Positions 307-20,000 of a DNA stretch of 20,000 nt are shown piece after piece (position 1 is the stretch's first letter; each line of letters begins with the position of its first letter). This DNA is from Euglena gracilis (Eukaryota). Under the pieces are notes generated by a model. The model did not search any database. It saw only the letters and a program-made list of their open reading frames with translations, and had not been told where the DNA came from. The position numbers and the translations under genes are program-made. The stretch spans positions 5,853,389 through 5,873,388 of the forward strand of contig CP154954.1 of assembly GCA_039621445.1 (NCBI GenBank), written 5' to 3'.

Positions 307-1064
307 CAAAGAGTTCAATTGTTGCTCAAGGCCTGGAGGCCAAAAGTCAGCCAGTTTGGCCAGAAGAAATGGACATTTCAGAAAGTGTCAAGTCAGGGAT
401 TGTCAATGATGAAAAAATCTGGGAAAATCAATGCTGCAGAAAACTTGGCTGGAAATCTGAGCTGTATGCAGTAAAATTTCAGTATGTTGTTGAAATCATT
501 GACAGATTGTAATTGAAGACCCCCAACATTGATGCATTCAGTTTGGAAGAAAGCAAGATATTCAAATGCTGGTGGGGACCTGGGTCACAATTTGTGGAAG
601 ATTCCTTCACAGTGAAGTGGACACATTCCATTGTTGGATTGTTGTGGTCAAGTCCCCCCTTCAGCCTCATTGCAAATGTCATCCGCAAGCTGAAGAAGGA
701 TCATGGTCATGCGGTGTTGGTTGTCCCAAAGTGGGTTACTGCCCCCTGGTGGGAAGATCTTCAAGACATTGTTGTCAGAATGCTGGAGTATCCTTGTGCC
801 ACGCCGTTGTTTGAGTTGGTTGGGGCAGGGTTCACAGTCCCCCCCACAAAATGGCCAGTACAAGTGGCATTTGTCTGTGGAAGGATAAGTCAATGTTTCA
901 AATTGGCAAAAGTTCTCAATCCAATTTCAAGTTCAGCAAAAAGGAGAATGAGGAGGCAAAAGATGAAAAGAGGGTCCTCCCCACAAGTGCACCTTAGGCT
1001 CCAGGTCGGCACAGGGGACAGCCCAAATTTCAGTGATTCAAGTGGTGAAGTCTCTTTGCAATGA
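279..1064 (+). pseudogene. Dam-like (phage/DIRS-type amino-) DNA methyltransferase ORF with one in-frame TAA at 510-512
   Basis: ORFs 279-512 and 513-1064 share a frame. Motifs P-IDAF, DSF--KW, LWSSPPFSLIANVIRKL and AVLVVPKWVTAPWWEDL follow the DIRS/phage Dam pattern (IDLFAS...DAF...W...NPPF-LI--VL-K...ILV-P-W----WW--L). Basic tail KRRMRRQKMKR. True start codon uncertain. Confidence 0.8.
307..317 (+). promoter_or_regulatory. Self-priming primer-binding site of element M (Tf1/sushi type)
   Basis: CAAAGAGTTCA directly after the 5' LTR is the exact reverse complement of TGAACTCTTTG at 160-170 in the LTR. No TGG-initiated tRNA PBS is present. Confidence 0.8.
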
Positions 1065-1490: not shown

Positions 1491-1734
1491 TGTGTGGGCG
1501 GCGCCAGGTTTAAAATTTAAAAACCCAAAATTGAATTGGGAGGCGCCTATCCTAATTACAAAATTTCTGTTTTTGCAGCTGCAACTGTCCTGAACTCTTT
1601 GACTCAAGGAAGGCCTGAGCGCATGAAGATTTCAAGTCTTGGTTTGTGCTATGCTGAAGGAAAGTGAGTGCTGCTGGAAAGGAAAAGTTTTCAAGTTTGA
1701 CCACCAGTGGGTACAAGGAGACACTCAGAAAACA
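1491..1734 (+). repeat. 3' LTR of element M (244 bp)
   Basis: Copy of 62-306, preceded by the PPT and followed by ATAC. Confidence 0.93.
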
Positions 1735-1738
1735 ATAC
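1735..1738 (+). other. Right target-site duplication ATAC
   Basis: gaaaaca|ATACacccgg; identical to 58-61. Confidence 0.9.
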
Positions 1739-4700
1739 ACCCGGAAACTCTCCCATTGTCCGTGGGACGGCAGGGATCCTGCGCGGTGTCGGTGGTCGTG
1801 GGGGTATTTCTTCCACTTCCATTTTGACATCCGGTCGAGGAGGTTGATCCTCCACAACCGCTGGCGCAGGTGCTACGGGAGGTTGATCCTCCGTTGTAGC
1901 CGTTGCGACAGATGTCTCTGTCGGTTGGGGTTCATCCCCTGAAGATGGTTGCGCTGCTGCCGGAGGTGGGGGTGCCGGGACACCGATATCCGGCGTCTCC
2001 ACAACCTCAGTGGCAGAGCTTGATGCTATGCCTCCACCTCGTGGCGTTAGTGCAGAAGCCACGGCAGTAATGCCAGTGACGACGGCGCCGAGCACACGGC
2101 CTCCTAATGAGGTGCGTGCTGTGGGGCTGGCAGGTTCTTCGAGGGTATCCTCGATGACCATACCAGTCACCTCAGCTTCAGGCTCAGCCGCCGGGAGAGG
2201 CGTTGCAGCCACAGGTATATCCCCTGTGGGTGCTTCGTCTGGCCGAGGCTGTGCTGGGGCAGGCAGATCAGCGTAGAGGATAGCCTCCACGTTCTCGCCT
2301 TCCTCCTGAGGGAGTTCCTCGTCTCCACCTGCCGGTGGACAGACGGGAGCCGCGGCCGCGGGGGCCGGGGAGACTGATCGTTCCCCTGCCGCCCGTGGGG
2401 CAGAGACGAAGGATACAGCCGTCCCTGTCGGAGACAGCGGCGCTGCCTCCAGGATAGTGACGGAGGGGCTGCGGTCGCGATCCTCTCGCCGCGGAATCGC
2501 GGTGGTGGAAGCGACTGACTCCTCACGTCTCCTTCGCGCCAGAGGTTCATCCTCCGGGGCGATGAAGGCGCGCAGATCCTCGGGCGAACGCGGATCGTCG
2601 GGGTGCCATCGGCATCCCTGAGCATCCGCCAGCCTGTAAAAGGCCAGCGTACTGCTGCGGGGCTGTTGGGCCAGGGTGGCGGCCATGATGGCTGCACCCA
2701 AGCGTTGGCAGGCCTTTTTGGGCCCAGAACACCGCCGTAGCGCGTGTTTTCCCAGACGTCGAAAACGCCCTCCTCGAACTCCTGAACGCATGCCAGAATC
2801 GGCATACGCTGTTCGAGGATGGCCTCCGGGTGACACATCAGCGGGAGGAGTACCTCCCGGTCGAGGGTACCGCCAAACTGTCGCCGCAAATGTTCCTCCA
2901 TGTTGATATCAGCCAGGTGCCAGTTGGGGTGCAGGTGGCCGAGAATCCGACGACAAGGGCCCTCGATGGCGTCACCGTAATTCGGTGGCAGGCTTTCCAT
3001 ACCAGGCCTATCGTCCTGGGGGTCACGGAGATGTATATACACCTCCATGACATAGGTGGTCCAGGCTCGCCACCAGAACTGCTGCAGCATAAAAATACGC
3101 TGCTTGTGGACGCGGCGACTTTTGCCCTGGACATCCGGGGCGTCGCGGCACACATGCATAAGCATGCGGCGTCCCATCTCCAGGCCCGGGTTTTCCCGAG
3201 GCGGTGGAGGACTTCCGCGCACGCCTAATCCCCAGAAGTCGACAGGAAATTCCTGCCGGCAGTACTTACAACAGAGGTCATACCTCTGCAAGCCAGGGAA
3301 ATGCGCTTAACGCGGAAGGTGGAGCCGTAATGGCTCACCAGCCACACCTGGAGGTTGTTGCACCACAACACCTCGATCAGGCGTTCGATGTCGGGGTGTA
3401 GTGGGTAGAATTCCTACTGCACGCCGAGGGGTCTGACTCTATGAATACAGTCGTAGATTGCCTTCAGCCTTCGGGCCAACACACGCTGGTCCCGAAATCT
3501 CAACTGGTGCAGGTAACTGCGACCAGTGGAGTCGCTGAAGAGACCCCAGTTCAGGCAGGGGTATCCCAGCCAAAACAAGAGCTCCCAGAAACCCGGCTGG
3601 GCATCCAGCAAAGGTCTGCCACCTTCACCTTCGAAGGCTTACAGATCTCTTCCGTAATGGAATAGTCTGACTCTGTTCTCGGTGTGGCGTAATACCACAT
3701 CGATGACTGCTTGTGGAGGGGTGACGGGGCGGTTTCCTGCAATATGGTAACCATGCTGCATTCGCCAGCCTTCGTCCTCCAGCTCCTCCTTGCACCTGAG
3801 CATACGCTCAAAGTCCGAGAGGACTTCTGCTGGTTCCTCTTCCTCCTCACGTGCTGTTCCCTTACCTTTACCCTCACCCTTCCCTTTGCCGGCCACGCCT
3901 TTGCCTTCTCCCTTGCCTTTGCCCTCAGCCCAGCCTGTGTCCTTTCCCGTCTGGGGAATACCAGAGGGTCGGGCGCTCGGTGCCGCCGGAGTCGGTTCGG
4001 TTCCTTCCTATTCCATCTCTGGGGAGGGACCTGGCCGACCCGCTGCACGTCGCGGTGACGGCGTGGCTGGGGGTTGGCTAGGAGTCTGGCGTGGGCTTGG
4101 CTTCGGCGCAGGTGGTCGCGGCTCCTTCCATACCGGAGGAATCGGCGGTGGTATTGTGGCAACAGGACGGCTCATCGCCACCTCTGCCTCTGCCGGTGGT
4201 TTTCCAGCCGGGGTTACCTGGCTGGCTTCCACCTGCATCGCCACACCGCCTTCCGCGTCCCGTGGGCTGGGTCGCCTGGGCTGTGGGGTAAGGTTCTCCG
4301 TAGTCCTGTCGCGCTTCAGGGTGGCAGGTAATACTGCCACACCTGCCGGGGGCTCGCCGGGTAATACCGGGGTTGCCACCCGCAGCTGCGGCTGGTACGG
4401 ATGGCATGGGGTGTATCCACGGCCTGAAGGGCAGCCAGAGAGGAGTAATACCTCGACCGGTGCTCTTCAGACACGAATACTGGCTCCTGCAGGAAGTGCC
4501 GAGCAAGCTCATCCTGCTCGGTTTCCGGAGGTGCCATGTGATAGTAGGGAGTCTCCTGCCGACGGGGGATATCCCCAGTCTGGACCGGAGCTGCACTGGG
4601 CGGTCGGGCTGCCACACGGTGGGGAGGTTCATCCTCCACCACTATGGGCTCCGCCTGCCGCCGTGGCTCAACGCCAGGGACAGGGGCGACCGGTGATGCC

Positions 4701-5460
4701 TGTGGCATCCAGTGCATGAACATGTGTTGAACGTATGCCTCAGGGGGCACGTCCTACTGTCCGGCTGGGAGCACGCGTGCGCCGCGCGGGTAATCCGCGT
4801 GCGTCCCGTACTGCGAGACAAATTGCTCCGCTGGCGGCTCGCGCGGCGGCATTCGCTGCGGCGAGGGCGGGCGAGCAAAAATTTTCGTCATCCCAGGTGG
4901 GACATGCACAGCCTCACCTACCGGTGGGGGCGTGTGCTCACGCATATGCACGGTGTGGGATCCCACCGGCGTCTGCGTTTGCAGCATGGGCGGCACATAC
5001 ACGCCCAGGTCCATCATTGTCTCGCCAGGCTCGAATCTGGAATCGGATGCCGACGAGAAATACCGTCTCCCCGTCATCAGGGCTTGGCCACAGGGACACC
5101 ACTGAGCCACAGGCGTGTTGGCTACCACCAACAACTGAGCGCAGTATGCATCCCAAAGGGCTTGCATAAAGGGCTCCGTTGGGGGTGTGCGCACATACGC
5201 ATCGCCCGCTCCAACGTCTCCATAGTGCGGAAGATCATCTCTCCCGTATACGGGGGCAGGCGCGATCTGCGCTGCGCTGGTGGCTGACGTGCCGGCTGCT
5301 GGACGGCAGATGGATATGGTAGCGCATATGCGGACCGGCTGCTGGTAGCCGCGGCGAATACCGGGGCTGAAACCCTCTCAGCATGTGGGGCACCCGGAAT
5401 CGGGGCCTCAGCATACTGAGGGTACTGGGGGTATGGCTCGCCCGAAGGCTGCAGCCATGG
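1739..5460 (-). pseudogene. Extra long Pro/Ala/Glu-rich ORF downstream of pol, function unknown, frameshifted; continues at 1-57
   Basis: Chain of same-strand ORFs 4754-5194, 4316-4750, 4008-4379, 3639-3896, 3414-3611, 2167-3291 and 1691-2836. Contains a GKGKGE repeat (~3859-3926) and a W/C/H-rich core (CCKYC...HVC). Confidence 0.65.
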
Positions 5461-5563
5461 TGAACCAGGTGGTCCAGGTCCGCGCCCAGGCAGCAGGATG
5501 CTACCCGAACGACGACGACAACTAAGGGTGACCTTGTTGTCAGTCGCTTTGAGTGCTGGTGCA

Positions 5564-5637
5564 CTGAAAAAGTAAGGCTTCTATCTTAATCAAAAACTCT
5601 GCGAGAAAGATAGAGAAAGAAGGAAGTGCAGGGGGGG
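5564..5637 (-). promoter_or_regulatory. Candidate splice-acceptor region upstream of the 3' ORF
   Basis: Minus strand CCCCCCTGCACTTCCTTCTTTCTCTATCTTTCTCGCAG (AG ends 5599) and CCTTACTTTTTCAG (AG ends 5564). Confidence 0.5.
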
Positions 5638-5691
5638 TATAAACGCGAAACATTCACCTAAAGCACACGCATTCTCCAAAACGAAATCGTT

Positions 5692-5965
5692 TCAGAAAGT
5701 GTTTATGTTATTGCGCTTGTTCCACGGCTTCCAATCCTGCTGGATATATCCAACAAAACTGGATGCTGGCTCCCAAGTGTCCTCCTCTGGCCCATACCCT
5801 TTCCAGCGAACTTTCCAGTAGTGCACACCCCTGTCGACCTTGTGGTCTATTATCCTATCGAACACAAAGTCGTCCGTTTCAGGTAATCTGGAACGGGGCT
5901 TGAAATACAGGCAGGGGATAGCTTTTCCGTCTGGGGGGCTTAGGTACGGTTTGAAGTCGTCCATA
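5692..5965 (-). pseudogene. pol: C-terminal chromodomain of integrase
   Basis: [10 protein letters not shown]...[22 protein letters not shown], a canonical chromo motif with aromatic-cage residues. Stop at 5692. Confidence 0.95.
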
Positions 5966-5969
5966 TGTG

Positions 5970-6650
5970 TTGAAGTTTTGTAAAAACGATTTCCGTTTGT
6001 TGGAATGAATTTCTGTGATACGTGATTGGACTGCAGAGCGGAGTGATTCCACTTCTGCAAACCACGTTTCACAGCTGACGCTACTTCGGGCGGGTCTCTC
6101 CGACGGGATATCCCCTATGGCCGGAGGGTCTCGTCCGAAAACAATTTTGTACGGCGAGTGTGGTAATACCAACCCTGGCAAGGTATTGATGTAAAATAAA
6201 CACCAATGAAGAACGGATAACCAATTCTTACCCGAGTCGGCCAGTGAAAGGCGAAGCATATTGACAACGGATTTCACGGCTGCCTCGGCTCTACCATTGC
6301 CTTTCGGGCGGTATATAATGGAAAAATGCTGCTAAATGCCGAGTAAACCGCACAAAGTGGTGAAAAACCGCGAAGAGATCAAGTGATCTTGATCACTCAC
6401 AATTTCGTTCGGTAAACCCATTAAGCAGATACATTTCTCCAAAAATATGGATGCCAGAATTTGGGCCGTCAACCCTGCTTTCCGGCATGGAATGGCTACA
6501 ATGTACCCACTCAGCCGACAGACGACAACAAAAATTGTAAATTTTGTCATATTATCCTTTGCAAGGTTCAAGTTCGAGAAAGTCCATGCAGAGGGACGTA
6601 AAAGTGTCTGGTGGTACGGGGAAAAAGTCCATCGTACCAGGGGGGGTACC
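5970..6650 (-). pseudogene. pol: Integrase catalytic core (DDE), frameshifted
   Basis: SLCMDF, CRLSGYIVAIPC, GLPNEIVSDQD, NGRAEAAVKSV, SPYKIVFGRDP. Confidence 0.93.
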
Positions 6651-7691
6651 TCAGCGCGGTTTAACAGCCTGGCAAAATTGGCACCGTTGGGAAATTCGCA
6701 AACAGCGCGAATATAAATCTTTTGCACTCAGGGTTGTGCCATATCTGCGACCCACTAGTGAAAGAAGTTTGGGGGCCCCAGGGTGACCATGGTTGTGATA
6801 CCTCAAAATCACATCATCAACCAGGTCTTGGGGTATACAATATTTATAACCAGAAACATTCCGGAAAATAAGCCGCAATGGTGATAGAGAGTAATTCTCT
6901 ATGGATTCACCATTACGAAGTCTATTCACAATGGTACTATATATAGGGTCACGCGAATAGTCCCATTCGCGGAAAAATAGGGGGGTAGGAGTTTCCGTAC
7001 GCGTAATGCGACGGGGTGCGGCAGTGCGTCCACGCCGGCGCCTTCCACGCAATGGTGAAATGGCGATGCTGCGATATACCCGGGAAACGGGTAGTGAACC
7101 GAGCATGTTGTCCGCAGCGTCGGATCGACGTGCGAACTGGTCAGCCTCATGGCTGCCATAAAAAGTCGCATCACCCTCATCCGGGTTCCCAGGATAATCC
7201 CAGGGGGCTCGGCTGAGAGGATCCGCAACTTTTTGTGTATGACCTGGGGTATAGATAACCACCAGGTTAAACTGGCTCAAGAACTCATGCCATCGGCATC
7301 TTCTGCCAACTGATGACATGGCCTTGTTTAGGTCCTCGGTATACCAGTGTTGAAGGCTCTCATGATCCCTCAACACGAGTATCTGGACAAAGCTGCTGGC
7401 TATCCAGCTGCGGAATGTCTGGAGAATAAGCACAATGGTATATGTCTCCTTTTCGCGAATGCTCCATTTAACCTGTCCTTTCCCGTTGTCGCCCTGTAGC
7501 TTCCTGCTGAAGAAAGCCACAGGTCGGAGTTCATTCGCCGCATTATGCAGGCTAAGAACCCCGCCAACAGCGTAATCGCTGCTGTCGACTTCCAGGACAT
7601 ATGGTTTATATGGATCCGCGATATCGAGAACCACGTTCTCGAGCAGCAAGTCCTTGATTTTATTGAAGGCCTCGCGCATTTGGTCATCCAA
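6651..7691 (-). pseudogene. pol: RNase H and integrase HHCC zinc-binding domain
   Basis: VDSSDYAVGGVL, PVAFFSRKL, EKE, DHESL, VADPLSR; then YHNHGHPG...CQFCQ. Confidence 0.95.
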
Positions 7692-7735
7692 AATGACTTT
7701 TGCGTTATCGGGTGTCCTATTTTTGAGTTGTCGGG

Positions 7736-8640
7736 TTAGTGGTAACTGCGATTTTTTGCGAAATCTTTCATGTAAATCGCGTAATATTGGGCTAATCCCA
7801 AAAATCCCTTTAAATGCGTTAAGGTCTTAATGACCTCAGGAGTCCATTTCTTAATGGCCTCCATCTTACTGGGTGCCGCTTTACGCTGCCCGTTGCTCAG
7901 GATATGCCCGCAAAACTTAATAAATTTGCAAAACAGGTGCATTTTGGAACCCTTCACAAAAAGCGCATGCTTTTTGAACGCAGATAATACCACCCACACA
8001 TCGCGATAGTGCGGTTCGAGGATAGCCTCGCCCGATTTCGCGGATGGCGGTTGGGTTCCCACCAGTACATCATCGATGTACACCAGAGCAAACGGTAAAT
8101 CGCGCAAAACCCACTGGATCATGCGTTGAAACATGGCTGGACCATTCCTTACACCCATGGGGAGTACCGTCCATTGGTACACACCCTTGGATGTCACGAA
8201 TGCCGTGTACGGTTGCGAATCAGGATGCAAACGCATCTGATGGAAACCGTCTTCCAGATCAAAGATTGAGCACAACCGGTTATCCGATTGTCTGGTGATC
8301 AAATCTTTGATCAGCGGTAACGGGAAGGGGTCATCCTTCGTTTGGGAGTTCAGGTACCGGTAATCCAGCACTAGTCTCTACTTCTTTTGACCAGACTGGT
8401 CAGCGGGTTTGGGCACCACAAAAACCTGTGATGTCCATTCGCTCTTGGAAGGGATAATCCACTTCCGCTGGATGGGTTTCTCAATCATCTCGTTGAGAGC
8501 TTGTTCGCGTTCACCCGAACAACGGAAGAATTTACGGTGCATGGGTTTAGCGCCATCCTTGAGCTCGATTTTGCAAACACCGAACGGGCCGCGAATCGCG
8601 GGGTCGATGTCGCTGGCGTATACTGGGTTATCCAGTACAC
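7736..8640 (-). pseudogene. pol: Reverse transcriptase (Ty3/Gypsy)
   Basis: SEWTSQVFVVPK...K*RLVLDYRYLN (TAG at 8378-8380), FDLEDGFHQMRL, LPMGVRNGPAMFQR, YIDD (8069-8080), FCGH, LKGFLGLAQYY. Frameshift near 7745. Confidence 0.97.
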
Positions 8641-8784
8641 CATGAAATTCGCGAGTAATTCGCGAACAATAGTCAGCAGACTTTGTTGGTCCGCACTCTC
8701 AATGACCGCAGAAATCTGCGTTGAGGGTGTGGCATCCCCCTTGGTACCAAGGTATCTTGGCACACGCACATCGGATATTCCGAA

Positions 8785-9400
8785 TGCGTCAAAGAAACAA
8801 ACGCCAAAAATTATTTCTTTAACCGGTGGTAATAATATACTGGACGTCCTCAATCCCGTTGCGCAAGGTAACTTTATATCGCCCGCTACTACCTAACCTC
8901 TCCAAAATTTCGCATGGGCCGAGCCAAAGAGGATCTAGCTTGGAGGATTGCATGCGGGTGCGGTTATTCCGTACCCACACGTGGTCACCTGGACTATACA
9001 CAGGCACAAAAATCCTCGAATAGTGGTACATCAGCGGGTAAATCCCACCAGTGGAAACACACATGGGATAGTTGGTGAAACCAATCCGCATTCGGATTGA
9101 CGGGTATGAGGAGAGCTCCTCGCGCTTCATCGCGGAGGATTTTCTCCACCACATCCGGGAAAAAGTTCGGGAGAGGGTGCATCCAGAGCACCGTATCACC
9201 CCAAAATTTCAGAAATGCGTTGGAATGTCGCGACCAATATCGTGACAAGCGCGCATGCGCTTTTGATGAAAACACATCAATTTCTAATGACAAATCGAAG
9301 GAATCAGCCACAACCGCGATTTTGGAGAACGATCCCTCCAAAATTCGGTATTGACCAAAATTTAATGCGTTCCATACGCGCATCGCGTATGTGTCGACCT
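8785..9400 (-). pseudogene. Dam-like methyltransferase domain inside pol, between protease and RT; split by the 168-bp insert
   Basis: IDVFSS---ARLSRYW...NAF-KFW...LWMHPLPNFFPDVVEKILRD...ALLIPVNPNADWFHQL...PLFEDF [insert] ILLPPVKEIIFGVCFFDA. Colinear motif by motif with the element M protein. The catalytic motif is degenerate (HPLP). Confidence 0.75.
8841..9008 (-). other. Displaced integrase C-terminal GPY/F segment (168 bp)
   Basis: Encodes VPVYSPGDHVWVRNNRTRMQSSKLDPLWLGPCEILERLGSSGRYKVTLRNGIEDV. Homologous to element B ~15370-15525 and absent from A's integrase at ~5966-5969. Confidence 0.92.
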
Positions 9401-9731
9401 GGTTCGCGGGGTGAAGAGCAGTAACGCAATTCAGGGATCCGCAAACATAAGTCAAGGGTGTTTTATCCACTCTCCCTAGGGGCATTCCTCAATGTTGATG
9501 GGTTGGATGGGTGTATACCCAGTCCATATCATGCGAGATGGAGGTGGGGGAGGTGTGTGACACGGATTTCGCTGTCCCAAACAACAAGGCAATACCTCGT
9601 TGTTGGAGCACTTGATGTACGGTCGCGCATTGCGAACCGCAACCAAGTGTATGGTTGCGCGAAATCGGGATTATTGTTGGTGTTTGGACTAGGCATCCAC
9701 AATCGAAATCTGGCTGGGCGGAAATTCTCCC

Positions 9732-10640
9732 TCAGTGCACACATTGGAAGGGAGTGTCGGAGTAGTGGTCCTGGTCGCGCACGTTGGTCTGGTGGGGGTG
9801 TGTGTAAAAGTCGGGATGCGCTGTTGTAGCTGCTGGGGGGTGTACAGATGTATCTGAAAGCGATACATCTGGTGGAAAACGGGGTATTGGTGCAGCTGGG
9901 CGACTACTCGACACCGTACGTACTTCAGGCCTTTGGGCTTTCGTCTTGTAACCCAGTGGAACGAGGGGGGTACCGCTACTCGCTTGCCCTGCCTCATGGG
10001 GAACGGAAGTTGGTGTGTCAATGGGCAGGGGGTGAACTTTCTCGGTACACCCGGTGTGGAAAACGTTGGTTGGTGTGGATGGTAACGGGGTAATATTTTT
10101 TGAAATCGGTGTGGAAATATTGGTGGTCGTCGCGGTTGACGCCACGGGTGCTGAAGGTTTGGGGGGCAATGAAGAGAATGGTGATGTGCGCCAACCGTGG
10201 GAGTGGCAATCCACTACCAGCCGGTGCTGACGTAAAAAGGGGTATCCAAGAATTACGCCAGAACCATGGATTCCGGATTCGTATCCCCAGGTATCCGGAA
10301 AATTTTGCGTTTGGGGGGGGTGTGAGTGGTGCTTGGGGATGAGGGGTAGGACAATGTCCAAAAAGCATCCCAAGTCACCGCCGCACATGGGGGTGTTGTC
10401 AGCCGTCGTAATTTTGATCAGCTTCTTGGCTTTCACCAAGAGGGGGGTTGGTATCAACCCGAACCGAAAAAGTAGTGCAATGCGACAACCAGTATCAATG
10501 AGAATTTTGACTTTTGCACTACAATTTTGGAATTTGATTTCCGCTTGGACCAAAAGTTCAATGGGGGGTAAGCAAAGTGAAGGGTCTGGCGAAAATACGT
10601 TTTCTTCCAGCTTTCCCATGATCCCTTTCCTACTTTGCAC
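9732..10640 (-). pseudogene. pol: Retropepsin aspartic protease followed by a P/T/S-rich linker
   Basis: ILIDTGC (DTG at 10488-10496), flap ITTADNT and ILGYPFL motif. Confidence 0.9.
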
Positions 10641-10743
10641 AACATTCCGAGCGGAAAGCTGGAGTGGGGGGTGGGGGACCCGAAAATTTTCCGGGTACCG
10701 ACCAGAAAGGCAGATGGGCAGGGGGGGCGGGGTTGATCAGGTC

Positions 10744-12198
10744 CTACCTCCATCTGTTCATCAGCCCAGAGGTCCGTTCCCTCGGACCTCGGGCTCCCCT
10801 ACTCCAGGTCCGAACCGGCCGAATAGCCGCTATGGGCCTTTTAGAGGTGTAGAAGGATTTCAACGTGCGCACCGCCATGCGGGCATCGTCGAAATCGGTA
10901 TCCGTGGTCTCATCCCCCTCCCTGCCCGAAGCCGGGGTGTCATCCTCCAAACAAGATATCTTGAAACCGACTTTATGGCGGTTGGAGGAGTGACCCTTGT
11001 CACCGCGATTCATACCGCGATGACGTTGGCCAGGGCGTGGAGAACGAGAACGCAGACATTTGGATGAGTGGTGATCACTCGATCCACAAAGCGAACACCG
11101 AGATTTGTGTCGCGATTCTGGGTAACGGGGGGATCGGTTTCCCGATTTCCCGTCAACCGTCGCGGTGACCGGATATCCCGTCGACGATGACCGGTGTATC
11201 GAGGTTTTCCCGACGAGGATCGCGAAGAAGATGATCCGCTTCGCAAAACACGATCGCGATGTCTCGCGATGAGAATCACACTTCTTGGACAGGGCACCGG
11301 GTGACCTACCCCGAGGGGTACCGTGTTTCCGCTCATCGCGGAACGGGATCCGGGGGCTAATACCACCGGAACGGGGACCCGATGACCGTGAATTGCCCGA
11401 TTGGCGTGAAAACGTGGAGGAACCCGAACCCCGTGATGAGGTCGAGCCTCGTGGACTCTGAATACGCTTACACACTTCAGGATTAGGACATTCCCGAGAC
11501 ATATGTCCCGCTTTGTTGCACAAAAAGCACACTTTATCCGTGGCTTGGTCCGAAGAACGCGGATATCGCGTTTTCGATCCCGTGTTTGGTGAGGTGGGTG
11601 AAACCGGTGATTTTTGCAATGCGTTCACCGAACCAGCCGGTAATCCAGCGGTTGGGTGTGCGTTATACGCGGATTGCATCTGACCAAGAAGCTGTGATAG
11701 CTTCAACTGCTTGGAAACGTAGTTCCAGCGTTGGTCAAGAGTCATTGGATGACTCGCCAACCCATCACGGTGGATATCCTTGATGAGGCTAGGCGTGAAA
11801 TACATGAGAACAGCATCAAACTGTTCGCGCACTTGCTTTTCACTGAGTTCATCCACTTCGGCGGCAAGTCCTAACCATTTGGCATACCAAAGGTCAATGG
11901 ACTTCCACGTGCGATCGGGTGGGGCGCATTGCCGCCACTTGGTCTCTAGGGTAATCCTAGCGACCAAACTTGAACTGGTGGAAGCGTATTGCTCCACCAG
12001 GTCATCAAGGGAAACACGGTAGCGAATCACGAGTTGTCGCGCGCGTTCCTTCTCATCCCTAGGGAGGCAATCGATTAATTCCATCTTGATCACCTCCGGG
12101 TTTGTGTCCTGGGTTGGCCCTTTTAATGCCCAGTAGTACTGCCAGTCCCGGAAAAACTGTCTCCATGCGGTTGGATCACCGTCGCATTGGGGTTTCAC
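10744..12198 (-). pseudogene. gag: Gag capsid-like domain plus two CX2CX4HX4C zinc knuckles in an R/S-rich region
   Basis: Capsid-like start (DGDPTAWRQFFRDW). Knuckles CFLCNKAGHMSREC (11488-11529) and CSLCGSSDHHSSKC (11056-11097). Confidence 0.88.
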
Positions 12199-14771
12199 CT
12201 TATTCGCGATTGCGATGGTGCCCTTGAAGTCTTTCTGAGAAACCCAGTGACCGTCGGTGGTATTCCGTGGTTTTGGGCCTGGGTACGCTCGAGCACCAAG
12301 CGTATCCTTTCCGGAATCTTGGCGGAATTCGCGATTTCTGGTGAAGGTGAATCCTGGTACCGGAAATCCGGTCGCAAACCCTGTTGGGCACCCGTAATAC
12401 GGGGACTCTCCGGTGTGGGGGTATGTCGCCCATGCAACATGTGACCCACTCCCGGTGTACGGGTTTGGCTCATTCCATGCACAAGCATGGAATGATGGAT
12501 TTCTTGGCGGAGACTTGGCGGAATCGCCGTGTTTTCCGAAAATTCGGTTCCCGTAATGGGAAATTCATCCGAAAACTGGGTTTGGGTTGTGGGCAAGGCC
12601 AATGGTGGCACAATTCGCGGACTCGCGGATTGTGACACTCGGGACACGGGTTGTGGTGGTGCATGTGCACCTAGAGTCGGGTTATGGAAACGCGACTCTG
12701 CAACATTTGGCGCGTCTTCGGCATTGCATACTGCCGAATTGCGGTGTGAAACCCGCTGTTGGTTGGACACATTATCCAAACACACAGACAAGTCATGCAC
12801 AGTTTGCTCCAAGTGCTCAACGAGTTGGAGTTGACCGCAAATAAGATCAACTCGATCCTCCAAAGCGCGAATACGCTTGCGGTAACGGGAAAAGTCATCC
12901 GAGTGCGGAAACCTTTCGGAAATTTCGGTAACATCTTGGACAAGGTTCCCGTGAGAATTATCCAATAATTGGAGTTGTCCCATTAATGCTTTTACAGCAT
13001 TTGAGAGAATCTGCAGTTACCTTGGTTGGTGTGGTGGTGGGTGGAACCGGTGCAGCGTTATCCGACAACGCGGTTGTGGTACCCACGGGAAAATTTGCGG
13101 ATTGCAGCTTATCCAAAAACGCGGAAATTCGCTCATCCAACCTGGTAATTTCACTTTGCGTGGATCGGGCATTCCGATTCACCGATTCCTCAAGCCGTAA
13201 TAGGCTGTTGCAGAAATCTTGCAATGTTTCCTGATTGTCAGTGAGCATTTTGTCATAAAATGCCTTGAAATCGGGGTTCTCGGTAATCCAGGAATTGGAA
13301 CATGCAGGTAGAGACTGCATTTCTGTTTTTTTAGCAGACACCGATGCATACCGGGTCTGGAGTTCCCCAATAGCAGTTTGAATACCTCTAATGTCCGGAA
13401 CTCGGTGGGAAAGTGCGGAATAGCTTTGTTGCAAACCCGCAATGGCCGAGTTAATCCCGCCAATGTCGGATTGCAACTGCAACTGCAGGGAATCCTGCCG
13501 TTGTGCTACTTCCGCGACTTTCGCGCTCAGATTGGATAATCCAACCTGATTTGCGTCACAATAGCAGGTTTTCTGATCCAAGCGGGACAGTCGCTCCTCC
13601 AACTGCCGCACATACGTGTGGGGAGCAAAATTCTCGTTGGCTTGTGACTGGAATTGCCGAAATTTTTCTGTTTCATCGCACAATTGCATAATGCGGTGTT
13701 GCGATTCATGGAAAGTTGCGGACAATGTGGTGAAATGGTCCATAGACACAAATCCACCACTGTTTGATGTTGCAGACAAGGAATGTCGTGCATGCAACTG
13801 TTGTTGCAAATGCACGAGATTGTTGCAAATGAACAGGACTCCATTTTTCCCGATAACTGTTGTAGTGAGTCATGCAAGTGCAGAAACTTGGAATCATTCC
13901 GCGTTTCCGCTTCATGCATGCATTCACTAATTAGCCGGAAGTTTTGCGGGAGTTGTTGGCATATTTTGTCAAAGGTTTCCCGAAAGCTTGCAAGGTCAAT
14001 ACCCGCACTTTCGAAATTCCTCTGGCAATATTTGCCAACTTCTTGCAAATAATTCCAGCAGTATTCCAGCTTGGTGAAGACATGTTTTTGGTTGTCCTCA
14101 TCAAACTGGAGCACTTTGTTGAGTGCGGTTGCACAATCTGCAACGCATTGTTGCACATGGTTGAACTGCCTCACAAGGGGGTGATCCCCTGGAAGCTGAG
14201 CAACGATATCCTGCACATCCTCAGCAGTGAGGAGCTCACCAGTGCCCTTCCCATAGCCATCCATGTGTTGGGACGTACCGGAGAATTCCGGTACCACTAG
14301 GCGAGTCTCCGGTTGCCAAGGTAGTGCGGGATAGCACCCAAGATCGGGTGGTGGTGGCAAAGCTCTGTAAGGGCTTGCCGGTGGAAGAACGGGTGGTGGT
14401 TGAAAGAAACACGGGGTTTCTAGCTCACCATCACCAGAGAAGCCCGGTGGCTGAATCACCACGGGTCTCTCCGGTGTGTGCAGCTGCACCATTGCCGCAG
14501 ACAGAGGCGAATACCCCCGTTGTGACAAGGTGAGTGCGGAAGAGGCCGCATTAGCCTCTGAAGCCAGTGATGTGGAGGGCTCATTGCCGACCACTGTCAA
14601 TGATGACAAATGTTGCAATCTTGACAATTGAACCAATTGTGCCTCATCGGCGTGGGAACTGGAAGCACTTTCACATAAAAGCTTCCAATCCCCATTTTCC
14701 TGGTCAATGTCTTGCAATGATGCCTGTAATAAGGCATAGTTGAATTGATAGTTGGGGCCTGTGCTTTGCAT
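12195..14771 (-). pseudogene. Long helical/coiled-coil N-terminal extension of gag (or separate upstream ORF), frameshifted
   Basis: ATG at 14771 (MQSTGPNY). Overlapping ORFs 13527-14855, 12958-13815 and 12195-12983 chain by frameshifts. Q/E/L-rich heptad-like stretches (VRQLEERLSRLDQK, IRALEDRVDLICGQL). Confidence 0.65.
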
Positions 14772-15038
14772 CTTTCTGATGACAAAAACAGCAAAAACGC
14801 ACAAAATTAAACAGTTGTGCTGGCACCAGAGGGACTGTAACGGGTAATACCACACAGAGGCTTCCGGAGCCTGCTCGTCTGCTTAGACTAGAAGCCGGGA
14901 GGTGACGCTGCGACCTTGTAATGACGGTGCAGGGGCCCTCCGCTGCCAGTCAGCGTAGGATCGAATCAAACTGCAACCAAGTGTAATACCTGGTAGCCTT
15001 TTTTTTTCTGTATGGGTTGTATGTGTAGGATCGTGACC

Positions 15039-15051
15039 TCCTCTGCTACCA
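15039..15051 (-). promoter_or_regulatory. Primer-binding site complementary to the 3' end of initiator tRNA-Met
   Basis: Minus strand reads ttaca-cg-TGGTAGCAGAGGA(ggtcacgatcc). The reverse complement of animal-type tRNA-iMet is TGGTAGCAGAGGATGGTTTCGATCC. Confidence 0.9.
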
Positions 15052-15053
15052 CG

Positions 15054-15367
15054 TGTAAGTCTGATTCCCAATTCCCTTTTCCCAATTCCCAAAAGCCTTC
15101 GCTTTCGCCTTGGCGCACCTACTTGGGAACTGAAAATCATAGTAACAGAAAATCCCTTTTTCCCACTTCCCAAGAAGCAAAGCACAGAGCAATGCAGGGA
15201 GGACGGACTGGATATCCAAGTCCGGTCCGGAGAAAAGGAAGGACAAAGGGAAAAACAGAATACCACCTGTGGAGAGAGAAGGGGCACCCATTAGGAGATC
15301 CTAATAGGATCTGCTTCCATCCTAACTTCCTCAACGGAAGGGGACAGAAGCATATGCCTGGTACACA
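15054..15367 (-). repeat. 5' LTR of element A (~312-314 bp; start at 15367 or 15365)
   Basis: Begins TG(TG)TACC where element B's integrase homology stops (NGVE|). Ends CTTACA two nt before the PBS. The partner LTR is not in the window. Confidence 0.8.
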
Positions 15368-17243
15368 CCTCGACACCGTTGGGTAAAGCGACTTTATAGC
15401 GCCGACTTGTACCCAACCGATCAAGGATCTCACATGGTCCCATCCAGAGGGGGTCCAACTTCGTGGATTGCATGCGAGTTCTACCGTTCCGAACCCACAC
15501 GCGGTCACCTGGGTTGTATACCGGTGATTTGTAATCTTGTAAGAATTGTTTTTTTGTTTTTGTAAGTGTATAGCGACTACGTGCTTTTGCACATCCGTGC
15601 GCAATGATTCTACTTCAGAGAACAATGTTTCGCAGCTCACGCTAGAACGAGCGGGTCGTTCTGACTCGATGTCGCCCATGGCTGGGGGGTCTCGTCCGAA
15701 GACGATTTTGTACGGTGAGTATTGTAATATCAGACGCGGTAAAGTGTTGATATAAACACCAGGGTAGTACTTGTAGCCAGGCATTGTACGATTCGGCCAG
15801 TGAAAGTCGTAGCATGTTGACTACAGCTTTCACTGCCGCTTCAGCGCGACCATTTCCTTTTGGACGATAAATAATAGAAAAATGCTGCTCAGTTCCTAGT
15901 AAATCACAAAGAATTGTAAAAAATCGAGCAGTAATCAAATGGTCTTGATCACTCACGATATCATTCGGTAAACCCAGGAGGCAAATGCATCTTTCTAGAA
16001 ACGTTTGTGCCAAAACTTGTGCTGTCAACCATGCTTTCTGGCATGGAATGGCTACAATGTACCCACTCAGCCGACAGACGACAACAAGAACGTAATCGCA
16101 AATTTTGTCATCTGTTCCTTTGCAAGGTTGAAGTTCCAGAAAATCCATGCAGAGGGAAGTAAAAATGTCATTTGGTACGGGGAAGAAATCCAACGTACCA
16201 GGGGGGGGTACCTCTGCCCGGTTTCACAGCTTGACAAATTTGGCACCGTTGCGAATTTTGTAAACAGCGCTTGTACAATTTTTTTTCGGTCAGGGTTGTA
16301 CAGTATCTGCGACCCACCAAAGAAAGAAGTTTGGGGGCCCCAGGGTGACCTTGGTTGTGATAACATAAAAGTTCGTCATCAACCAAGTCACAGGGTATGC
16401 AGTATTTATATCCAGTATCATTTCGGAAAATCAAACGTAAAGGTGATAAGGTATAATTCTCAACCAATTCACCATTACGTAATCTTTGTACGACATTATT
16501 GTATAAATCATCCTTGGAATAATCCCATTCAAGAAAAAAGAGACGGGTTGGATATTCTGATCGCGCAACTCGGCGGGGGCCCGGCATTATGCAGCGTTTT
16601 CGTTTTCCCCGTACGGGGGCTATCGGCATCCGCCGCCAAGTCCGCGAAACAGGAAAGTTGTCAAGCAGGTTGTCAGCGGCGTCTGCGCGCCTTGCGTATT
16701 CGTCGGCTTCGCGACTTCCGTGGAACGTGGCATCACCCTTGTCAGGGTTACCAGGGTAATGTCAGAGTGCACGTAAAAGTGGGTCTGCGACTTAATGAGT
16801 ATGACCTGGTGTGTAAACTACCACCAGGTTGAATTGACTCAAAAATCCGTGCCAACGGCATCTTCGGCCAACTGAGGACATGGCTTTGTTCAAGTCTTCG
16901 TTGTACCAGTGTTGGAGAGACTCATGGTCTGTCAACACTAGTATTTGTACGAGTGAACTGGCGACCCTACTTCGGAATTTTTGTAGGATAAGGACAATGG
17001 CGTACGTCTCCTTTTCTCGTATGCTCCATTTGTACCTTGTAGCTTTCTGCTGAAGAAAGCTACAGGGCGCAGTTCATTGGACGAGTTATGTTGACTCAAC
17101 ACACCGCCGACGGCATAGTCGCTCCTGTCGACCTCCAGTACGTATGGTTTGTATGGGTCGGCAATGTCAAGTACAACGTTGTCCAACATCAGTTGTTTAA
17201 CTGTCGTTAGCGATTCTGGCATTGTATCATCCCATTGTATCGT
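15368..17243 (-). mobile_element. pol: Fragment of a related Gypsy (element B): RNase H, integrase HHCC, core and GPY/F; degenerate
   Basis: LDIADPYKPYVLEVDRSDYAVGGVL, YHNQGHPG...CQICQ, GLPNDIVSDQD, KLDPLWMGPCEIL. Colinear with A 5970-7700 but clearly diverged. Cut at both ends by LTR-like termini. Confidence 0.93.
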
Positions 17244-17856
17244 TGGGGGGATTAGAGGACCCTCGCCGCCCGGGGGGGCTGCTTTTTTCGCTGGGGCCAC
17301 AAATTCCTTTTGCTGGCCCTGGTGGGCTCAGGCCAGGGCCTTTGGTAAGTTGGGCCCCGTTTTCGAACATGCCAACCGGCGGTAATGGGGGTGAGGTGTG
17401 CCCCCCCGACCCGGGGTCCCCGGTTGCCCCGCGTAGGATTTTTTTTTCTTTCCATTGTTGGTTTTTCCCCATGTTTTCAACTTTGAACTTTCAGGATGAA
17501 ATTCAACAATGACAAACCAACCCACCTACTTAGGATCAAACAGCAGAGCACAACAAACCTGGGACTTGAGAGGGTGGGCAAGTACCTTTGAGTTCAGGTG
17601 TTGAGTGGGACAAAGAATGTGGAAATGAATGCCTTGGCTTCCTTTTGATGTTTGAATTGTTCTTATTGGCTCCTCAATTCCCAATTGAACAATTTGCTTT
17701 TCTGATTCTCAAATCGACTTCTCAAATTCTTCCAGGAATTTGCTGGGGTTCCAATTCCACTCGCGTGGCGGTTTACTTGGTTTTTGTTATTCCTACTGGG
17801 GGTTTTTGGGAATTTTCTGGGAAATTGTTGGCTGCCGATGCCAGCGGAAGCCGACA
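17244..17856 (-). repeat. Probable 3' LTR (~613 bp) of a third element (C) inserted into element B
   Basis: Starts TGTCGG right after a purine tract and ends CCCCCA where B's pol homology resumes (TIQWDDTM). No partner LTR in the window. Confidence 0.6.
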
Positions 17857-17867
17857 CCCCCTCCCTT
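17857..17867 (-). promoter_or_regulatory. Polypurine tract of element C
   Basis: AAGGGAGGGGG|TGTCGG on the minus strand; resembles M's AGAGAGGGG|TGTGTG. Confidence 0.65.
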
Positions 17868-19135
17868 GCGACGTTAGTCGGACCCCTTTTTCGCCCCCCC
17901 CCCACCCGAGCAAAAACGGGGAGAGTGAAATTGTTTTTTTTTGTGGGGGGGCGAAAATTCTGTGTTTTTTTTTTTGAAACGGGTCCTGTCGCTTTTTTTT
18001 GTTGAAAATCACTGTTACGAGTCTGACCCCCCCCTCAGCCATAATCGGGCACCTTGGAGGACTCTGAAAAATCAGGTCTACAGGGGGAGCCCCCCCACCC
18101 CTTTCCTCCGACGAGCATGGGGAACGGGTCTTTGAACACAAAATCTGAAAAACGATTCCAAACGAAACAAACTCTGGGCACTCCACCCCAAGGCCTAAGT
18201 CCCACGCTACCCCCTTGGTGAAAATCCTTTTTGGCAGCTTTCATTGTGTGAGACTTCATTTGTCGATTCTTTTTTTAAAAAAATCAGGGACTTTGGCCAA
18301 CAGTGCTTCAGAAAATGACTTGTGTGGGGAAAGAAAAGGAGAAAACCAGGCATTCCTTTCCAATTCGGGACAGAAAAGGTAAGGAAAAGGCTGAAGGTGA
18401 ATGGGTGCAATGGTGAGAGTGTAAGACGGTTATATACGGCGGGAATAGTGTACAATGGGTGTGCGGGTTCGTGTGCGTGTGTGGTTGTGTGTTTTGTGTG
18501 TCTGCACGCTCACTTCCTTGTCATGCATTCCAACCGAAAATGACTGGGCCGATTATTTTTTTGAACACAAAGAGAACAGGGCTTCGCAATGGCCCTCAGC
18601 CACTATGTCACAGGGCTTTAGTGCCCAGGTGGCTGGTTTTTTTTTTCATTGGCCCACAACAGGGCCTATGGACGGAGGAGGGGTCATCTTCGGTCCAGGG
18701 TCCACCCACCCCCACCCGAGTTTGGATGCCTCCAAGCTGCGTTCCATGAAAAAAATGCCTTTGACCAATATCCAATAGTCCAAACCGAATCAAAAAACTG
18801 AGTTTTAAAACTCCAACTCGTTTTGTCTTCCACCAGAAAGATTATCAAAACCCAGGTTTATCCAACTCTTTGAATAAAAATCCTCCAGCAACAAAAATCC
18901 TCAAAAAATCAAAAATCTGAGTCCAACCCACAAGTCCAGGGCCTACAAAAGCCCTCAACAAGATCCAAAATTCCAACTGCCATGTACAACAAACAAAGTC
19001 CAACCGAGACCAACTAACCCAACAGAAACAACATCAAGCGGCATACCGTTGCCTAGGGGCCAGGCCATTCCAGCACAACCCTGGGCACAACCAATTCACA
19101 GCCGGAACCAGCCAATTCGGCTTGCCAATTAAAAT

Positions 19136-19292
19136 TCACTGCCCCCCCCCCAATCACACGGGGCAATGGGGGTCAAATGGTCAAATGACATGGCAAACTC
19201 AAAAATACTGAAAATTCAAATCCAATTTTGTCAGCCAAATCGATTTTTCGCTGCCCCCCTCCAGTCACATGGGGCCATGGGGGTCAATCTGG
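19136..19292 (+). repeat. Imperfect ~45-bp direct repeat, 2 copies (19136-19180, 19247-19292)
   Basis: ttcactgccccccccccaatcacacggggcaatgggggtcaaatgg vs ttcgctgccccccctccagtcacatggggccatgggggtcaatctgg. Confidence 0.7.
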
Positions 19293-19699
19293 CTTCAGCC
19301 TCCAAACAAAAAAATCACAAACCTGGGCCGTAATATCCAAACCGGCTGCAATCTCACACATGTCAAAGGACAGGCCTTCACAATGTCGCCCCCCTCCCCA
19401 CCGTCAACCAATGCGAGGAGGGCCACGGGTTAAACATTCCTGGCTGCAAAACCGGAATCTCCATTCGACGAAAAAAAATGAGAAAAATGGAAATTTCATC
19501 AAATCCCGCCATATCTGGGGTATGACCAAAACAATCACGGTCACAATATGATGCATTCCTGTCCCCACCCAAACGTCTCACAGGGTATCCAATTCTGAGT
19601 CAAAAAATTCCAACCGTAAAGCCAAAACTGATTTTGTTCCACCACACCAACAAAAAACAGGGCTAAACACAGCCCCCCCCCCCCCCCAGCAGCACGAGG

Positions 19700-19998
19700 A
19701 GTGGAGAAAAAATGGCTCCAAACCACAAGCAAAATCCTGAGACCCAAAAACATGAAAAATCTGATTCAGCGCTGTGGGAGCAGCCAACCTGGGCCTGGAC
19801 CTGGGCTTTGGCCGTGCATCGGGCCACTGCCCACTGCTGGCTCTTGAGGTCATTAAGCTTCTCTCCCCAGCACTTCAGTAAGTAAATGTACCCACCATTC
19901 TGCAACTCCACAAACAATCCACAATTGCAATCATGACAATCGTAATCATGTGCTTCAATTGCTTGGGTCTCATTAATGTCATTGAAATCTGTTCTCAA
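19700..19998 (-). pseudogene. Possible coding remnant, unidentified; probably enters from the right edge
   Basis: Open frame with ordinary protein-like composition (GLFVELQNGGYIYLLKCWGEKLNDL) in CpG-poor sequence. No recognised motif. Confidence 0.25.
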
Positions 19999-20000
19999 TC

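Follow-up and report, generated by a model that had tools for sequence, protein, structure and literature searches.

A Dam-like methyltransferase domain between the protease and reverse transcriptase of a decayed chromovirus-type Ty3/Gypsy copy

The stretch analysed here is very probably the methyltransferase module of a decayed chromovirus-type Ty3/Gypsy DAM-LTR copy, which reads, in order, protease (PR), Cys-motif linker, Dam-like N6-adenine methyltransferase domain, reverse transcriptase (RT), RNase H (RH), integrase (IN) and chromodomain. This assignment is supported by the domain order, by homology to phage-type Dam, by the fold of a close relative, by in-frame fusion in intact relatives and by other copies of the family that also carry the domain. 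A Dam domain in an LTR-type pol is no longer new: DAM-LTRs, chromodomain-bearing ones included, are described in the available text of a preprint of May 2026 (bioRxiv 10.64898/2026.05.21.726589), and a full-text literature search returned no other paper on the subject.

The window (the whole stretch of DNA that was analysed, 20,000 nucleotides, eukaryotic in appearance) contains one Ty3/Gypsy-type element on the minus strand, from ~12564 to 5690, according to a Pfam scan of stop-to-stop ORFs that covered all 157 window ORFs of at least 70 aa. The Pfam families follow one another on this strand as zf-CCHC, Dam, RVT_1, RNase H, Integrase_H2C2, rve and Chromo (Table 1). The PR-RT-RH-IN order, the Gypsy-type RT (RVT_1), the DDE integrase and the chromodomain at the integrase C-terminus allow us to classify the element as a Ty3/Gypsy chromovirus, and a PF05869-type Dam domain inside the pol of a non-DIRS LTR retrotransposon, between PR and RT, classifies it as a DAM-LTR. 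Among the 157 ORFs, Pfam gave no Phage_integrase-type match that would indicate a tyrosine recombinase and no match to a cytosine methyltransferase (DNMT) domain. A repeat search and self-blastn found no direct repeat pair around 5600-15100 that could represent flanking long terminal repeats, so the ends of the window copy are undefined; truncation of the copy, or LTRs beyond recognition, may account for this.

Table 1. Features of the element and of the second Dam-like domain, in window coordinates.
Feature	Position	Strand	Evidence
Gag-like ORF, 606 aa	10744..12564	-	Pfam zf-CCHC knuckle E=5.4e-5, residues 345-361
Retropepsin-type protease core (predicted)	10203..10574	-	DTG at residues 81-83 of ORF 9735-10736; VILGYPFL motif; fold
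Cys motif CxxC...DCGC, PR-Dam linker	9684..9746	-	Translation and alignment of relatives
Dam-like methyltransferase domain, N-terminal part	9005..9395	-	IDVFSS, then motif-IV position = HPLP
164-nt piece, own integrase SH3 region, within the Dam domain in a different frame	8841..9004	-	Pfam SH3_Tf2-1 E=5.8e-6
Dam-like domain, C-terminal strands (…LLPPVKEIIFGVCFFDAFG…)	8765..8840	-	P0151 residues 406-477 against 8841-8635
Reverse transcriptase	7718..8683	-	RVT_1 E=8.5e-25; 78% aa identity to P0151 residues 459-787
RNase H	7269..7688	-	Pfam RT_RNaseH_2 E=5.2e-22, RT_RNaseH E=2.9e-19
Integrase, H2C2 zinc domain and catalytic core	5975..6836	-	Integrase_H2C2 E=1.1e-6, rve E=5.2e-4; SH3 part absent at 5965/5966
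Chromodomain, pol C-terminus	5758..5859	-	Pfam Chromo E=4.6e-10, 39.7 bits against a cutoff of 25.1
M, second divergent Dam-like domain fragment, motif SPPF	441..1061	+	BLASTP to the main domain E=3e-8

Upstream of gag, three long ORFs in overlapping frames (273, 303 and 451 aa; 12195-14882, minus strand) have only sub-threshold coiled-coil-type matches and no Pfam family. A second chromovirus copy, 5'-truncated to RNase H and integrase, occupies 15140-17327 on the minus strand; it has 85-93% amino-acid identity to P0151 (a relative described below) and ~74% nucleotide identity to the main element, and it lacks the region in which the Dam domain would fall. The sequence upstream of this copy (17400-20000) is of low complexity. 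The block from 1700 to 5600 is GC-rich (55-65% G+C, compared with ~50% elsewhere), with long ORFs on both strands and no Pfam match; its open frames may result from base composition, or the block may be a host gene or a different repeat.

An earlier note on this DNA had placed a Dam-like domain between PR and RT on the pol strand, at 8785..9400. The domain was found there, spanning ~9395-8765 on the minus strand and broken by 8841-9004, with a match to PF05869 and a protease fold upstream. The minus-strand ORF 8997-9488 (164 aa) matches Pfam Dam (PF05869) with E=8.8e-4 and 19.4 bits; residues 62-139 of the ORF lie on positions 24-105 of the 169-position profile, and the NPPF region is included. 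This score is below the PF05869 gathering score of 28.1 bits, and the Dam-family homology of the window ORF therefore rests, transitively, on its relatives. A phmmer search for the METHYLTRANSFERASE domain, with the 164-aa ORF as the query, covered a library of 1.84 billion (1.84e9) representative proteins. It matched 234 of them at E<=1e-3; 60 of these reach E<=1e-10 and one reaches E<=1e-30. Sequence searches of the PDB gave no match even at E<=10, either with the single ORF or with a 74-row profile.

The Pfam scan of 25 longer phmmer matches supplies that link. Dam is matched at E<=1e-3 in 19 of them, bearing out the methyltransferase homology on which the earlier note depended, and ten exceed the gathering score (maximum 42.8 bits). 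RVT_1 lies downstream of the Dam-like stretch in six (P0006, P0022, P0026, P0044, P0045 and P0096) and Copia-type RVT_2 downstream of the Dam-like domain in three (P0111, P0136 and P0138, with integrase upstream in two); one, P0114, has the DIRS-like order RT-RH-MT. A word-indexed search of longer proteins gave P0151, a close relative of 1208 aa that is 66% identical across 92% of the query. P0151 is a single uninterrupted ORF that runs linker-Dam-RT-RH-integrase. According to tblastn, residues 7-408 of P0151 correspond to 10091-8997 of the window and residues 406-477 to 8841-8635. Two further proteins, P0153 (1677 aa) and P0154 (1991 aa), have Dam-RT-RH-IN-(SH3)-Chromo in uninterrupted ORFs, and P0022 and P0044 have weak protease matches upstream of Dam. 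The same domain order is thus found in single ORFs in P0022, P0044, P0096, P0151, P0153 and P0154, and the PR-MTase-RT-RH-IN-chromodomain lineage proposed in the earlier note is represented by the intact one-frame ORFs of P0022, P0044, P0151, P0153 and P0154. The proteins derive from ENA, JGI and Logan assemblies.

Some candidates were set aside. P0085 is a WD40 protein that was counted as a chance match and excluded from the alignments. Two metagenome loci (L001 and L002) were dropped, as their match was limited to RT-RH at ~30% and included no Dam match, and no metagenome locus was found with P0151 as the query. The best ESM Atlas cluster, with a score of 0.75, fell short of the level of trust for that tool and was discarded as a guide to taxonomy.

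Two observations on the relatives stand by themselves. P0111, P0136 and P0138 are Copia-type polyproteins (RVT_2) in which the Dam-like domain lies between integrase and RT, so the domain is found directly upstream of RT in both LTR superfamilies. In P0150 (891 aa), Dam is followed by sub-threshold matches to DNA_methylase (E 0.048) and N6_N4_Mtase (E 0.044) and by a protease-like stretch; going by these very weak matches, P0150 may have two methyltransferases, as elements of the 'EpiLTR' sort do.

Upstream of the Dam-like domain, ORF 9735-10736 has no Pfam match even at E<=5. In its AF2 model, pLDDT exceeds 90 for most of residues 61-170. The best Foldseek match of this model is the protease of Rous sarcoma virus (1bai_A, E 7.2e-4, prob 1.00), followed by Ddi1 and by the HIV, HTLV and FIV proteases. 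D81 and G83 are nearly invariant in a 17-row alignment of this ORF with the N-termini of 16 relatives. The ORF as modelled holds a retropepsin-fold protease and, given this predicted fold, the Dam-like domain does sit between protease and RT. The linker between the two has a conserved Cys motif: C317, C320, D330 and C331 (P0153 numbering) are invariant in 7 of 7 relatives, and the second Cys position is a stop codon in the window copy (9732-9734). To judge from its sequence, this CxxC...DCGC motif looks like a small zinc-binding knuckle.

The window copy itself is badly damaged. Its pol is scattered successively over frames -1, -3, -2, -1, -2 and -3 (tblastn with P0151 and P0153); the frame changes at least five times, and two in-frame stops fall in the protease-Dam linker. 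The earlier note had treated 8841-9008 as foreign to the methyltransferase domain, and 8841-9004 indeed proved to be a piece of the integrase SH3 region of the element itself. The piece matches P0153 residues 1530-1583 at 70% identity (tblastn) and has 72% nucleotide identity to 15368-15512. In the window, P0153 residues 1339-1525 fall at 6535-5975 and residues 1583-1672 at 5967-5698, and residues 1526-1582 are absent from the integrase; as residue 1525 is at 5975 and residue 1583 at 5967, the piece at 8841-9004 is the stretch missing from the element's own integrase. It is displaced 2.9 kb upstream of the integrase site, with junction microhomology of at most ~3 nt.

Contigs of four public runs were aligned to 5600-10800 (X1, X2, X15 and X17, the last a metatranscriptomic library, in which presence alone is no proof of transcription). 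The joint 5965->8841 was found in other copies in 11 contigs of X1, seven of X2, one of X17 and one of X15, and the joint 9004->5966 in 12 contigs of X1, nine of X2 and one of X15; an X15 contig of 867 nt has 8841-9004 between 5965 and 5966. Position 8840 is joined straight to 9005 in three contigs of X1, in three of X2 and in one 981-nt contig of X17 (8495-9635), and loose contig ends matching the 8840/9005 junction number 25 in X1 and 18 in X2. Between the two halves of the domain the reading frame is offset by the length of the piece (164 = 2 mod 3). The contigs with 8840 and 9005 joined, together with a frame offset equal to the length of the piece, imply that the interruption is private to this copy or its assembly and that the Dam domain belongs to the family. 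The domain is thus no private insertion, a condition under which the earlier note would have abandoned its reading: other copies read uninterrupted across it, and the 234 phmmer matches agree. The rearrangement looks like a precise relocation of the 164-nt piece; template switching in the course of reverse transcription could have produced it, or a misassembly. With a split domain, frameshifts and stops, and HPL instead of NPP, the window copy is unable to make the enzyme and is a dead relic without function. The family is abundant, with 42,677 contigs of X1 and 34,795 of X2 on 5.2 kb at >=90% identity.

The fold was modelled on P0001, a 316-aa relative with a complete domain, rather than on the broken window copy; the AF2 input was a 74-row alignment that included both window domains. 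Residues 71-220 of the model have pLDDT above 90. Foldseek against the PDB placed PCIF1, a cap-specific adenosine-N6 methyltransferase, first (6irw_B, E 5.9e-4), with only two matches at E<=1e-3. A VIA search of 48,161 chains, independent of Foldseek, also placed PCIF1 first (6irx_A, Z 9.7, r.m.s.d. 2.8, 127 aligned), followed by a putative RNA methyltransferase (Z 8.9), METTL5 (7.9), KsgA/Erm enzymes, M.BseCI (7.2), T4 Dam (1q0s; 7.1, r.m.s.d. 2.9, 105 aligned), M.TaqI (7.0) and EcoDam (2ore; 6.6). Below 8, the VIA Z may mean only a common arrangement. PCIF1 carries an NPPF-type catalytic motif. The modelled domain of P0001 has a class-I (Rossmann-like) methyltransferase fold and its nearest neighbours are adenine-N6 enzymes, a prediction that by itself does not indicate the substrate.

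The catalytic motif was compared in an alignment of 155 rows, made up of the window domain, M and 153 phmmer matches (P0085 was left out). At the motif-IV column, 97 rows have Asn, 29 have His and 12 have Cys, and the triplet is NPP in 78, HPP in 21, CPP in 11 and NAP in nine; the residue that follows is most commonly F (80 of 155). Conservation reaches at least 90% at the flanking D, F, W, W, P, K and P. P0151 has HPPL, P0153 has HPMF and M has SPPF, while the window domain has HPLP and is the sole HPL row among the 155, departing from the (D/N)PP(Y/F/W) motif IV of N6-adenine methyltransferases. His at motif IV is thus found repeatedly in ORFs that are long and intact, whereas the Leu occurs in the decayed window copy alone.

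The second Dam-like domain, M, was said in the earlier note to be colinear with the main domain, which holds: BLASTP aligns the two at 25% identity over 96 columns (E=3e-8), colinear at 513-1061 on the plus strand. By tblastn, P0153 matches M at 441-872 and P0151 at 528-851, and M has no Pfam match of its own at E<=0.05. It is flanked by direct repeats of 245 nt (62-306 and 1493-1734, 96% identity), with no RT, protease or recombinase beside M in the window or between these repeats. Among longer proteins, none of 320 candidates is a relative of M at E<=1e-3; in its nearest relatives, local phmmer and Pfam searches gave weak protease-like matches only (P0146, E 0.0074, upstream of Dam; P0099, E 0.063). 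In a midpoint-rooted FastTree tree of the domain, built on the 128 of 155 rows with at least 110 residues and weakly supported overall (59 of 125 forks open), the main domain and P0151 fall together into a clade with Gypsy-labelled rows. M lies across the midpoint root, in a 15-row clade (support 95) without labelled rows and near Copia-type and PR-MT rows. The earlier note had also drawn from the two domains an old and diverse group of methyltransferase-bearing LTR elements in this genome. The great divergence of the two domains stands (25% identity, opposite sides of the root), and the placement of M in an LTR element was not confirmed; what speaks for a diverse group is the divergence of M and the weak protease-like matches in its relatives.

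For intact members of the family, the model of the preprint (bioRxiv 10.64898/2026.05.21.726589), in its available text, is that DAM marks reverse-transcribed intermediates or recruits AMT1. Following it, the Dam-like domain would travel with RT and integrase in the particle and would deposit 6mA on the new cDNA, as an RNA-DNA hybrid or as a double strand; an alternative step would be recruitment of AMT1, the host 6mA maintenance enzyme. New insertions could then resemble transcriptionally permissive chromatin, and the chromodomain would steer integration by reading histone marks.

The motif data bear directly on whether such a domain is catalytic. We consider it unlikely, although deserving of weight, that in the His subfamily the domain is retained but non-catalytic, as a nucleic-acid-binding or protein-recruiting module, for example for host AMT1 or for cDNA. 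His or Cys at motif IV is found in 29 and 12 of the 155 rows, and the His rows include the long uninterrupted ORFs P0151 and P0153; moreover, in the available preprint text, expression in E. coli did not raise 6mA, and recruitment of AMT1 is put forward as another option (bioRxiv 10.64898/2026.05.21.726589). NPP is nevertheless still the majority state, the flanking residues are conserved as would be expected for an enzyme under selection, and the preprint itself gives several trivial explanations for the negative E. coli assay. The structure searches raise a different substrate: the domain would methylate RNA, at the N6 position of a cap-adjacent or internal adenosine on the element's own transcript, in the manner of PCIF1/CAPAM, and so stabilize or mark the genomic RNA. 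PCIF1 does top both searches (with a VIA Z of 9.7 compared with 7.1 for T4 Dam), and Pfam PCIF1_WW is weakly matched in P0114 (E 2.3e-5) and P0146 (E 0.0071). However, phage Dam is the best Pfam family in the same 19 of 25 scanned relatives, PCIF1 leads the next VIA rows by only ~1-2.5 Z units (a Z below 8 may mean no more than a shared arrangement), and the preprint text reports 6mA enrichment on the DNA of DAM-LTR copies (bioRxiv 10.64898/2026.05.21.726589). An RNA substrate therefore seems improbable to us.

The damage to the window copy invites the further thought that the protease-methyltransferase-RT order is an artefact of the locus, with a fragment of a DIRS or other element nested in a Gypsy copy, or a misassembly. 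The copy is certainly rearranged, with an integrase piece inside the domain, and the preprint warns, in its available text, of nested insertions and assembly artefacts in Euglena (bioRxiv 10.64898/2026.05.21.726589). Against this, the order recurs, within one open reading frame and without interruption, in proteins from independent assemblies (ENA, JGI and Logan), contigs from several runs cross the linker, the Dam domain and the RT-proximal sequence without interruption, and the 157 window ORFs of at least 70 aa include no tyrosine recombinase. We regard an artefact as highly improbable and retain the reading of a family-borne Dam-like domain in a DAM-LTR pol.

The DAM-LTR design was here recovered independently from raw sequence, in an abundant family. 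What the analysis adds is that otherwise intact elements repeatedly have His in place of Asn at the catalytic position, that a conserved Cys motif precedes the domain, that the nearest solved fold belongs to an RNA cap adenosine methyltransferase, and that an integrase piece is relocated into the Dam domain. The His change, the Cys motif and the PCIF1-like fold bear on the role of the eukaryotic retroelement Dam, a putative methyltransferase. A more speculative proposal, which we hold only tentatively and think rather unlikely, is that the family is a DAM-chromovirus lineage beyond the five described, very abundant in an unsampled host, whose methyltransferase module has changed from the canonical NPP pocket to an HPP pocket, retained in long intact ORFs, and has gained the CxxC...DCGC zinc-type motif upstream. 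Were this so, it would suggest that the domain has another substrate or serves to recruit without being catalytic, for instance on RNA or RNA-DNA hybrids as the PCIF1-like fold hints, rather than acting as a classical Dam. More broadly, retrotransposons with their own DNA- or RNA-modifying enzyme and a chromatin reader suggest that mobile elements may manipulate host epigenetic marks and do not merely suffer them.

Among known systems, the nearest solved fold is that of PCIF1/CAPAM, at a sequence identity of just 15-16%. This host enzyme acts on RNA and has a helical domain as well as a WW domain; an RNA substrate is not indicated for the window domain. The best sequence family is phage-type Dam (PF05869), of which only part of the profile is matched. 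Retroelements with a captured DNA-modifying enzyme include SymbioDIRS-DNMT3, SymbioLINE-DNMT, Gypsy-DNMT3 and the EpiLTRs, as listed in the preprint's available text (bioRxiv 10.64898/2026.05.21.726589); these elements carry enzymes of a different class, the C5 cytosine methyltransferases, and no DNMT domain was found in the window. The Copia-order IN-Dam-RT elements (the Chloro-Ochrophyta clade of the preprint; P0111, P0136 and P0138) resemble the window element in having a Dam-like domain immediately upstream of RT in an LTR-type pol, but have RVT_2 and carry the domain after integrase rather than after protease; in the weakly supported FastTree tree, their rows lie across the midpoint root from the main window domain.

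DIRS1-like elements carry the same Dam-like domain family in the pol ORF, with a function that is unknown in DIRS according to the available text of PMC3266345. The same source gives the DIRS order as RT-RH-MT, with the tyrosine recombinase in a separate ORF and with inverted or split repeats, in agreement with the order and the use of a tyrosine recombinase given in the earlier note. The window element instead has the domain before RT, a DDE integrase and a protease, and is without a tyrosine recombinase, which sets it outside DIRS.

The closest system is the DAM-LTR. The available text of the preprint (bioRxiv 10.64898/2026.05.21.726589) counts 10,030 eukaryotic DAM proteins, 53.9% of them with retrotransposon features, with chromodomain-bearing LTR elements making up 30.9% of DAM-TEs. 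By its own account, no earlier work had described such domains in LTR elements other than DIRS. It reports at least four transfers from DIRS to Ty3/Gypsy-like elements and a clade with DAM between integrase and RT. The lineages that it describes are five (Chlorophyta chromovirus-like, Chloro-Ochrophyta, Ichthyosporea, Pyropia and Euglena). In the same text, Asn-Pro-Pro is kept in almost all of the proteins and the fold has a five-stranded sheet; DIRS, DAM-LTR and adintovirus DAMs gave no 6mA rise in dam-deficient E. coli, and 6mA is enriched on DAM-LTR copies in two ichthyosporeans and Euglena. Compared by this text, the 'DAM-chromovirus-like' class shares with the window element a Ty3/Gypsy-type pol, a Dam domain in the same ORF and a C-terminal chromodomain, and the preprint family and the window family both have a conserved NPP pocket and a domain that aligns to only part of prokaryotic Dam. 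The window subfamily differs from the DAM-LTRs so described in having His for Asn in the triplet and a conserved Cys motif ahead of the domain.
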